Source of the DNA: a virus
Taxonomy: Duplodnaviria; Caudoviricetes
Length of the DNA: 64,000 bases
Direction: 5' to 3' (one strand)
Virus record (IMG/VR): IMGVR_UViG_3300031555_000867
Location: 4,383-68,382 of that record
Positions 4,855 to 6,067 of this stretch are shown here, one piece after another (position 1 is the first letter of the stretch; the number at the start of each line of letters is the position of its first letter). The notes under the pieces were generated by a model that was given only the letters and a program-made list of their open reading frames with translations, ran no database searches and was not told where the DNA came from. The position numbers and the translations under genes are program-made.

Positions 4855-4878
4855 ATAGGTCGGCTCTCGCCGACCTAT
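4855..4878 (-). other. DGR hairpin/cruciform downstream of VR2
   Basis: Perfect 10-bp stem ATAGGTCGGC/GCCGACCTAT with a 4-nt loop (GAGA on the coding strand), 46 nt beyond VR2. Confidence 0.85.
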
Positions 4879-4900
4879 CCAGTTTTACAGCGTCCAGTTA

Positions 4901-6067
4901 TCAGTTTGCCTTCTTTTTGAAAAAAGCAGAGCGGCCACCAATGCCCGCGTCGACATTAGAACGAGGGTCGCCGAGGTTCGAGGCGAACACCCCTGCATGA
5001 CCGCCATCGCTCCAGTAACCGCCACGAAACAGGCACCATTCTCCTTCGGACGAGTCCACATAACAGTAGGCATCAGGTTCTCCTGCGAAGAGTGCGAGTT
5101 CTTTTAACTGTTCACTTTCAACTTCGACCTGTACATTTTTCCACTTCTCGCCGTCATATCCACCCTCAACTTCATCCTCATCATCAGTGATGACAATTCC
5201 ATCTGAAGCATCAATGTAGATTGCCTTGCCTTCGTCTGTTACTACCGGATGCCAGTCAGCACCATCCGTACTGAGGTCGGTTTCAGGGAGTGCTGCATCG
5301 TTATTCATTGCCGCTTCCAATCTGCCATCTTTCATTCTTAATCCACGGCACATCTCCCAAATATTTCCGCACAAATCATGTACTCCATCTGCCTTATGGT
5401 TATGTGTCCATGTTGCAGGTCCGGAACCGGTCAGAGCCTTGCCACCATCGAAACATTCGCAGGTTTCGTTATGGTCTGCATGATACTTTCCGTAATTCGT
5501 ATTGCCATGAGGAAGTGTTCCATTCTTCAGGCTGAGGTTTGCTAACAATCCCCACTCAACTGCTGTAACCATGTGCCACCCTTCTCCTTTGGAGAAACAG
5601 GCTTCCGCAAATTCATCCTGCGTGATGTTTGTTACCGGCTTCGTAAACGGTAAGCTGTAGATTTTTCCGTTAATCATGGTTCCTTCATATACTGCGATGA
5701 AGATTTCATCATACTCGACACCACCGATAATGAATGCCGGATGCACCTTTTCACTACCACCAAACAACTCTCTGTTGGAGATTCTTTCAAATCTGTGCAT
5801 GAATGACGGAATTCCTGCGTTGTCATAAATAGCAACCACATCATGCTTAACACCGCCATATTCACCCACTGACACCACTTCTTTTTCTGTTACCGGCTGA
5901 AGTCTTGCTCCGTCATCGGTCTTTTCTTCGCCAAGACCGGCTCTGATTGCCTTTTCTACAATGCCGTTTGCCACTTTCAACACTTCTTCCGCAGTGCCAT
6001 CTGCTTCGATTGTGATTTCGTTTCCGTAATCACCGTTTCTGTTTTCTACATCGACTCTTAAATTCAT
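4901..6067 (-). CDS. DGR target protein 2 (FGE-sulfatase / C-type lectin fold), remote target
   Basis: Likely start ATG 6067 (GGAGG RBS; 388 aa). Motifs GSGPATWTH, DLCGNIWEM, LFRGGYW...IGGRSA. The C-terminus carries VR2. Confidence 0.9.
   Translation of the reverse strand: MNLRVDVENRNGDYGNEITIEADGTAEEVLKVANGIVEKAIRAGLGEEKTDDGARLQPVTEKEVVSVGEYGGVKHDVVAIYDNAGIPSFMHRFERISNRELFGGSEKVHPAFIIGGVEYDEIFIAVYEGTMINGKIYSLPFTKPVTNITQDEFAEACFSKGEGWHMVTAVEWGLLANLSLKNGTLPHGNTNYGKYHADHNETCECFDGGKALTGSGPATWTHNHKADGVHDLCGNIWEMCRGLRMKDGRLEAAMNNDAALPETDLSTDGADWHPVVTDEGKAIYIDASDGIVITDDEDEVEGGYDGEKWKNVQVEVESEQLKELALFAGEPDAYCYVDSSEGEWCLFRGGYWSDGGHAGVFASNLGDPRSNVDAGIGGRSAFFKKKAN
4925..5037 (-). repeat. DGR variable repeat VR2
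   Basis: 113-nt ungapped alignment to TR 35571-35683; 14 mismatches, all at TR adenines (coding strand). Confidence 0.95.

Follow-up and report, generated by a model that had tools for sequence, protein, structure and literature searches.

The locus described here raises two questions: whether a diversity-generating retroelement (DGR) lying behind the baseplate genes of a gut phage rewrites a second gene 30.6 kb away, and what kind of protein that second gene encodes. The stretch of DNA analysed, called the window below, comprises 64,000 nt and corresponds to bases 4383-68382 of one 68.4-kb (68,382-nt) gut phage contig (IMG/VR record IMGVR_UViG_3300031555_000867). On this single contig the DGR-type reverse transcriptase (RT), the accessory protein Avd and the template repeat (TR) share one replicon with two variable repeats (VRs), VR1 in the cassette-adjacent target gene T1 and VR2 in the remote target gene T2. 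The elements on which the argument rests are the following.

4855-4878, minus strand: VR2 hairpin, a perfect 10-bp stem with a GAGA loop
4879-4924, minus strand: spacer from VR2 to its hairpin, with repeated (A)ACTG motifs
4925-4941, minus strand: A-free, GC-rich 3' end of VR2, TTGGTGGCCGCTCTGCT on the sense strand, the same in TR, VR1 and VR2
4925-5037, minus strand: VR2, 113 nt, encoding residues 345-381 of the 388 residues of T2
4901-6067, minus strand: T2, the remote DGR target gene, 388 amino acids (PHROG 2889), with the ribosome-binding site AAGGAGG ahead of the open reading frame
34297-35481, minus strand: DGR RT (Pfam RVT_1, E 2e-20; motifs IGNLTSQ and YMDD)
35571-35683, minus strand: TR, with 26 adenines, between avd and the RT gene
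35699-36157, minus strand: Avd accessory protein (Pfam bAvd, E 5e-20)
36192-36213, minus strand: VR1 hairpin, a 9-bp stem with a GAGA loop
36245-37327, minus strand: T1, the cassette-adjacent target, 360 amino acids, at the end of the baseplate module
36257-36369, minus strand: VR1, with 15 mismatches to TR, all at adenines

Relation of VR2 to the template repeat

A first-pass annotation of this DNA had described an ungapped match of 113 nt between VR2 and TR with 14 mismatches confined to adenines, and the alignment of 4925-5037 with 35571-35683 reproduces it. On the sense (minus) strand, TR has an adenine at 14 of the 14 mismatches (10 A>G, 2 A>C and 2 A>T), and none lies at the 87 non-A positions, and the probability that 14 random mismatches would all land on the 26 A positions is 3.5e-11. 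The distance from TR to VR2 is 30,646 nt, and no further TR/VR copy is present in the 68,382-nt genome. VR1 and VR2 differ from each other at 13 positions, in line with the earlier statement that VR2 is diversified independently of VR1. VR2 sits at the 3' end of a C-type-lectin open reading frame, in the part coding for the ligand-binding face of the fold, and TR is rich in AAY codons (11 in total), which is the arrangement of a DGR target; TR provides 15 variable codons in which a stop codon cannot arise, and about 5e14 proteins are possible.

Diversity of VR2 in natural populations

The same annotation had proposed a search for adenine-specific VR2 polymorphism across populations, and this polymorphism is found in independent metagenome contigs, which were retrieved via exact matches to the invariant neighbouring proteins. 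Five or more VR2 DNA alleles were counted among near-identical contigs; they differ almost only at TR-A positions, the flanks and TR being constant while the VR2 alleles vary, and two additional alleles are known at the protein level only. The alleles of L006-L009 come from contigs carrying an identical LexA-like protein. In L007 the VR2 allele is that of the window and the 13 differences from the window are all outside VR2, whereas in L009 all 17 differences, over 750 nt, are within VR2, with 15 of the 15 mismatches to TR at A. In L006 there are 14 differences inside VR2 and one outside over 3.2 kb, and the allele that it shares with L008 has 19 mismatches to TR, 18 of them at A. Two more alleles, with 13 A changes plus one or two non-A changes, are carried by the more diverged Logan contigs L023 and L024, and the database proteins P0001-P0004 show 89-96% identity outside the VR and differ at variable codons. 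For comparison, there are four VR1 alleles among related contigs, and five independent contigs with differing VR1 alleles (L010-L013 and L015) share one TR sequence.

The L006/L008 allele, which was assembled from two samples, also contains a 17-nt tandem duplication of the 5' start of the VR (L006:2004-2021 and L008:37-54, at about 5027 in the window), in which the upstream copy belongs to the old allele and the downstream copy opens the new allele, so that the T2 frame is shifted. From its sequence, this duplication looks like a slipped 5' junction of cDNA integration, that is, the mark of a retrohoming event.

Could such variation be an artefact of assembly, or the product of recombination among TR, VR1 and VR2? 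Contigs from four Logan runs yielded no allele data, and in three of these runs low-depth contigs break at VR2, as is frequent at repeats. However, TR, VR1 and VR2 have no exact run of at least 31 nt in common, so no k-mer chimeras are expected; the alleles derive from different samples, in assemblies taken from JGI, ENA and Logan, and they are not VR1/TR mosaics, the novel bases appearing at TR-A positions only. An artefact of this kind would be extremely improbable.

It is also very improbable that VR2 is a decaying former target, with its differences from TR preserved as frozen history. Related phages do show non-A differences in the repeat of the second target (four of 20 in Dulem virus 37 and six of 17 in gp40 of Lagaffe), and one VR2 allele of the present phage is frameshifted; but the VR2 of the window is free of non-A mismatches, its hairpin and invariant 3' end are intact, and the five or more DNA alleles, which differ at TR-A positions, are embedded in contigs whose remaining sequence shows 99-100% identity over 0.75-3.2 kb. 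VR2 is almost certainly an active target of the single DGR of this phage.

Sequence elements beside the variable repeats

Both VRs end with TTGGTGGCCGCTCTGCT, which contains no adenine, and directly after it the VRs and TR diverge, with TT in both VRs and CT in TR. This GC-rich invariant 3' end is a candidate priming and homing boundary resembling the IMH (initiation of mutagenic homing) element, a function assigned by analogy with the model of phage BPP-1. The VR hairpins are located 43-46 nt downstream overall, that of VR2 being 46 nt past the VR end, and the GAGA hairpin that had been attributed to VR2 was recovered with a DNA fold z-score of -3.8, none of 200 shuffled sequences folding as well. 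The stems of the VR1 and VR2 hairpins are unrelated in sequence and both carry the GAGA loop. No T run follows the VR2 hairpin, which is therefore not terminator-like.

Comparable elements occur in relatives: in Dulem virus 37, G002 and Saumur, a stem of 8-10 bp with a GNNA loop (GATA, GGTA, GGAA or GAGA) is located 35-47 nt after both VRs, with differing stems, and (A)ACTG-type repeats follow both VRs of these three phages, as they also follow VR1 of the present one. Lagaffe is the one exception among the relatives examined, no hairpin of this kind having been found after either of its VRs. The invariant GC-rich 3' boundary and the downstream hairpin are thus present as sequence features, and their role in homing is putative.

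In the mechanism that we propose, RT and Avd would copy the TR RNA into cDNA with errors at adenines, and the mutated cDNA would act in trans to replace VR1 or VR2, each of which would be marked in cis by the invariant GC-rich 3' end, the ACTG-repeat spacer and the GC-rich GNNA-loop hairpin. The distance of 30.6 kb would be no obstacle because the cDNA product would be diffusible. VR1 and VR2 would be rewritten independently, and rewriting of the 15 variable codons of T2 could yield about 5e14 variants of its binding site.

Fold of T2

T2 is a paralogue of T1 (35% identity, E 4e-56), as the annotation had proposed, and the N-terminal leader of about 60 residues that it had mentioned comprises about 59 residues in the alignment, in which residue 81 of T2 pairs with residue 22 of T1. 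The AlphaFold (AF2) model of T2 has a mean predicted local distance difference test (pLDDT) score of 90.5, with values above 93 for the core residues 80-388, and the leader is modelled as a short low-confidence β-β-α unit. A search with the leader (residues 1-90) returned four close relatives only, and the ESM Atlas gave no usable match for it. The best PDB match of the model is TaqVP (5VF4; Foldseek E 3e-30, template modelling (TM) score 0.73), and phmmer comparisons with 5VF4 give E 1e-33 for T2 and E 4e-50 for T1, so that T2 shares both sequence and fold homology with this FGE-type C-type lectin over its whole core. When T2 is compared with the trimeric fibre tip of the Mtd type, the C-type-lectin part alone matches (TM 0.28), and the N-terminal β-prism and β-sandwich domains by which such a tip trimerises are not seen in T2. 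No hydrophobic segment and no signal peptide were found in T2. According to the model, T2 is predicted to be a soluble, free-standing FGE-type C-type-lectin protein similar to TaqVP.

The homology of T2 to T1 and to the TaqVP-type variable proteins of prophages also lends itself to an alternative, in which T2 is a second receptor-binding or adhesion protein of the virion, docked on the baseplate or fibre, and the phage would have two independently tunable specificities, for example for a second host receptor or a mucus glycan. The viral fold neighbours of the T2 model are tail-fibre tips, and a protein without a signal peptide would be unable to reach the cell surface alone; both points favour a virion location. 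The composition of the family points the other way. When 154 family members were sorted by best BLAST score against 13 reference proteins into 100 T1-like and 54 T2-like sequences, a length of at least 450 amino acids was found for 22 of the 100 T1-like proteins versus none of the 54 T2-like proteins (Fisher p 5e-5). The N-terminal extension of the long T1-like proteins matches tail-fibre or tail-spike families in seven of the ten checked, and fusion to a tail-fibre or anchor domain is seen in none of the 54 T2-like proteins, which argues against the virion alternative. When T2 was modelled in complex with the products of the three small genes that precede T1, the score was 0.01, for which controls were not run, and it is used neither for nor against binding.

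Genomic placement of T2 and its relatives

The genes that define the surroundings of T2, and the virion and lysis genes from which it is separated, are listed here.

4578-4835, minus strand: 85-residue LexA-DNA-binding-domain protein, directly downstream of T2 (Pfam LexA_DNA_bind, E 1.6e-17)
6709-7455, minus strand: nucleotidyltransferase-like gene, Gad2-like, upstream of T2 (PHROG 4400 and 1614)
31668-33281, minus strand: endolysin
37345-38528, minus strand: three small genes between the baseplate genes and T1 (PHROGs 7177, 9010 and 8734)
38559-43051, minus strand: baseplate genes
44380-48042, minus strand: tape measure
49332-50438, minus strand: tail sheath
52666-53703, minus strand: major head protein
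58799-61312, minus strand: portal
61335-62738, minus strand: large terminase

The virion genes span 37.3-62.7 kb of the window, and the setting first described for T2, between a nucleotidyltransferase-like gene upstream and a LexA-like gene downstream and apart from the virion genes, is confirmed. The other 31 kb of the window is non-structural, with functions mostly unassigned, and encodes ParB-like, MazF-like, dUTPase fusion and peptide deformylase proteins. No replication module and no terminal repeat were found in the contig, which may be incomplete, and a megablast search of window positions 1-20000 against GenBank phages gave no match.

In a maximum-likelihood tree, a branch with 99/97 support separates all cassette-adjacent T1 proteins from all remote T2 proteins, and the two are therefore old paralogues and not recent duplicates. 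Dulem virus 37, Lagaffe, Saumur and the contigs L025 and L027 all carry their T2-type gene in an early or non-structural region, and in the relatives with two targets both VRs match one TR, with mismatches mostly at adenines. The positions of the second target in the best-mapped relatives are as follows.

Dulem virus 37: second target at a distance of 10.4 kb, flanked by the lysis genes and the integrase
FP_Lagaffe, a Faecalibacterium phage (the two targets being gp26 and gp40): second target at a distance of 9.6 kb, immediately ahead of the exonuclease, Gam, Erf and SSB genes
Clostridium phage Saumur: second target adjoining the replication initiator
IMG/VR contigs G001 and G002: second target about 14 kb away

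Three further proteins of the T2 clade were examined for gene context. Two of them are encoded among early genes with no RT nearby, the first immediately upstream of a replication initiator and preceded by a repressor and an integrase, the second with an HD hydrolase on one side and a VRR_NUC nuclease on the other; the third comes from a contig of 3 kb, where it follows small genes, among them one for a helix-turn-helix (HTH) protein. At the protein level, the three small genes, T1, Avd, RT, the endolysin and T2 are common to this phage, Lagaffe and Dulem virus 37, and beyond this set Lagaffe and Dulem virus 37 give just single matches to a few genes. In contigs with a T2 of 55-57% identity, T2 is almost the sole conserved gene within 10 kb on each side. 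T2 is a member of an old clade of paralogues which accompanies the DGR module, and in all the relatives examined its genes occupy early or non-structural regions.

This distribution bears on the virion alternative in both directions. T2 co-occurs with the three small T1-upstream genes across otherwise unrelated phages, and the authors of the Lagaffe study proposed a doubled host-range adaptation (PMC11792537). Against it, the T2-clade genes of at least six lineages lie in the early or replication part of the genome and never in the tail module, and no paralogue of the T1-adjacent small proteins was found near T2 in seven phages.

Two side observations concern these relatives. The position of the three small genes (37345-38528) before T1 is kept in Lagaffe, Dulem virus 37 and G001/G002, the genomes of which are otherwise unrelated; these genes may encode an adaptor or fibre for T1. 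The VR of Lagaffe gp40 (L018:32592-32706) is internal, with a helical C-terminal extension of about 115 residues beyond it, and with six of its 17 differences from TR at non-A positions it is more decayed than VR2 of the present phage.

Expression and neighbouring genes

Five copies of one promoter module, at about 9.4, 10.9, 18.4, 22.0 and 30.9 kb, are present on the minus strand and nowhere else in the window.

9434-9490, minus strand: promoter module p9437, TTGACT, 16 nt, TGTATAGT, then the palindrome AACCAAATGGTT
10873-10930, minus strand: promoter module
18368-18430, minus strand: promoter module
22021-22080, minus strand: promoter module
30905-30965, minus strand: promoter module

Each module has the layout AAACG-N4-CGTTTAT, TTGACT, 16 nt, TGTATAGT and the palindrome AACCANNTGGTT, which may be an operator. 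The modules are restricted to the accessory region of 9.4-31 kb, which they divide into operons. The nearest recognisable promoter upstream of T2 is p9437, an early-type sigma-70 promoter with a consensus extended -10 element; T2 lies 3.4 kb downstream of it, and the interval contains a single terminator-like site, which is weak (8018-8001).

Several genes around T2 match families with a part in anti-defence or host takeover. The orthologues of the 6709-7455 protein in L023 and L024 have a precomputed match to Pfam PF26128 (Gad2, anti-Gabija), and the protein itself gave no PDB sequence match and no match in the Pfam copy searched, which did not contain PF26128. An HTH-Lar fusion is encoded in the T2 stretch and a Dam-type methylase further downstream. 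T2 itself matches no anti-defence family, whereas its neighbours do (Gad2-like and Lar-like).

At the start of the window or just outside it, a D12-class Dam methyltransferase and a radical-SAM-like protein (317 residues, weak Pfam match) are encoded, downstream of the T2 stretch, at genome positions 3550-4338 and 4353-5306 (L022), respectively, and two YopX-domain proteins follow these genes.

Role of T2

The first-pass annotation had suggested that T2 is possibly intracellular or expressed early. The gene does lie in a non-structural, early-looking region, and the suggestion as a whole is plausible and indirectly supported. Judging from gene order and promoter type, there is a little short of an even chance that T2 is made early from promoters of the host RNA polymerase and is a binding protein outside the virion, directed for example at a variable factor of the host or at a defence protein, and not the adsorption protein.

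Population data from a phage of the same type also have a bearing on the virion alternative. In Shimadzu, a Roseburia phage, virion-derived reads show that both VRs are mutagenised, which is experimental evidence of transfer from TR to the homologous VR2 (10.1101/575076). During lytic blooms of Shimadzu in mice, diverse VR2 alleles were present without selection among them, and the gene was judged less essential by the authors (10.1101/575076). This lack of selection speaks against the virion alternative, as does the frameshifted VR2 allele of the present phage, an assembled sequence in two samples. On the basis of that frameshifted allele and of the unselected VR2 of Shimadzu in blooms, T2 is probably dispensable for basic multiplication. 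A second virion receptor-binding protein is a somewhat unlikely description of T2, and we favour a free-standing early binding protein over it.

Several points weigh against this preference and against the picture of VR2 given above. Early expression of T2 and its absence from the virion are read from gene order and promoter type, and an early-encoded protein can still enter virions. The anti-defence context consists of family matches (Gad2 via the precomputed hits of orthologues, Lar and Dam), which amounts to guilt by association. The division of the family into T1-like and T2-like proteins follows the best BLAST score and not a full tree. Finally, one contig piece flanked by TR-type sequence shows 0 differences from the VR2 of the window, where 14 would be expected; this may be a quirk of reporting or reflect a relative whose TR is unusual, and the piece was not used.

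Taken as a whole, the explanation that combines a working remote DGR target with an early, non-virion binding protein seems to us reasonably probable. A more specific version, in which T2 is a hypervariable intracellular protein, made early beside anti-restriction and anti-Gabija-like genes, that the DGR retunes to neutralise variable defence or takeover targets, as an antibody-like form of counter-defence, would be quite unlikely.

Comparison with known systems

The novelty implied for a remote second target is not upheld, as the layout has already been published (PMC5758913, PMC11792537, 10.1101/575076). In DGRs associated with phages, an adjacent target is often accompanied by a non-adjacent one within 50 kb (Wu et al. 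2017, PMC5758913), and for Lagaffe a second VR was described in 2024, both of its VRs varying among cognate genomes and the function of the second target being unassigned (PMC11792537). The two-target layout is known for related gut phages, and the present phage is a further example of it.

The biology of phage DGRs has been explained almost wholly through the switching of tropism by tail fibres, and T2 represents a second target class that is supported by population data: an old free-standing C-type-lectin paralogue, encoded among early or non-structural genes throughout, which accompanies the DGR module in its movement among unrelated gut phages and appears to be dispensable for basic growth. 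Studies of Lagaffe and Shimadzu have posed the question of its role before, and the present phage and its relatives provide a defined set of genes with which to address it.

Lagaffe (gp26 and gp40) and Shimadzu (the VR1 tail gene and VR2 in orf43/44) are the closest parallels. In both, one Avd-TR-RT cassette stands behind the baseplate genes with T1 adjacent, a paralogous FGE-type C-type-lectin T2 is encoded kilobases away in the early region, and both VRs vary at TR adenines, as they do here; T2 of this phage groups with the T2 clade. However, the rest of the genome is unrelated to the Lagaffe/Shimadzu type at the protein level, and the target distance is 30.6 kb compared with about 9.6 kb in Lagaffe. 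The present T2 has the leader of about 59 residues, which is common to close relatives only, and lacks the C-terminal extension of Lagaffe gp40. It adjoins Gad2-, Lar- and LexA-like genes and does not stand directly before recombination or replication genes.

TaqVP, from a Thermus aquaticus prophage (5VF4, PMC6328139), is a homologue of T1 and T2 with the same single-domain fold and a C-terminal VR, and it is a monomer (PMC6328139); in contrast to T2, it is a cassette-adjacent target without an N-terminal leader, and it is about 28% identical to T2 in the structural alignment. The survey of Wu et al. 2017 (PMC5758913) describes the same combination of an adjacent and a non-adjacent target in one prophage, within 50 kb, but notes neither a split of the targets into paralogue clades nor their placement in the early region. 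Bordetella phage BPP-1 (Mtd, Avd, TR and Brt) shares with the present system the adenine-specific transfer from TR to VR, the Avd protein, the AAY-rich TR, the GC-rich 3' boundary and a hairpin on the downstream side of the VR, whereas it has a single adjacent target, and in this phage, unlike in BPP-1, the hairpin is located 43-46 nt past the VR, after a spacer of ACTG repeats.

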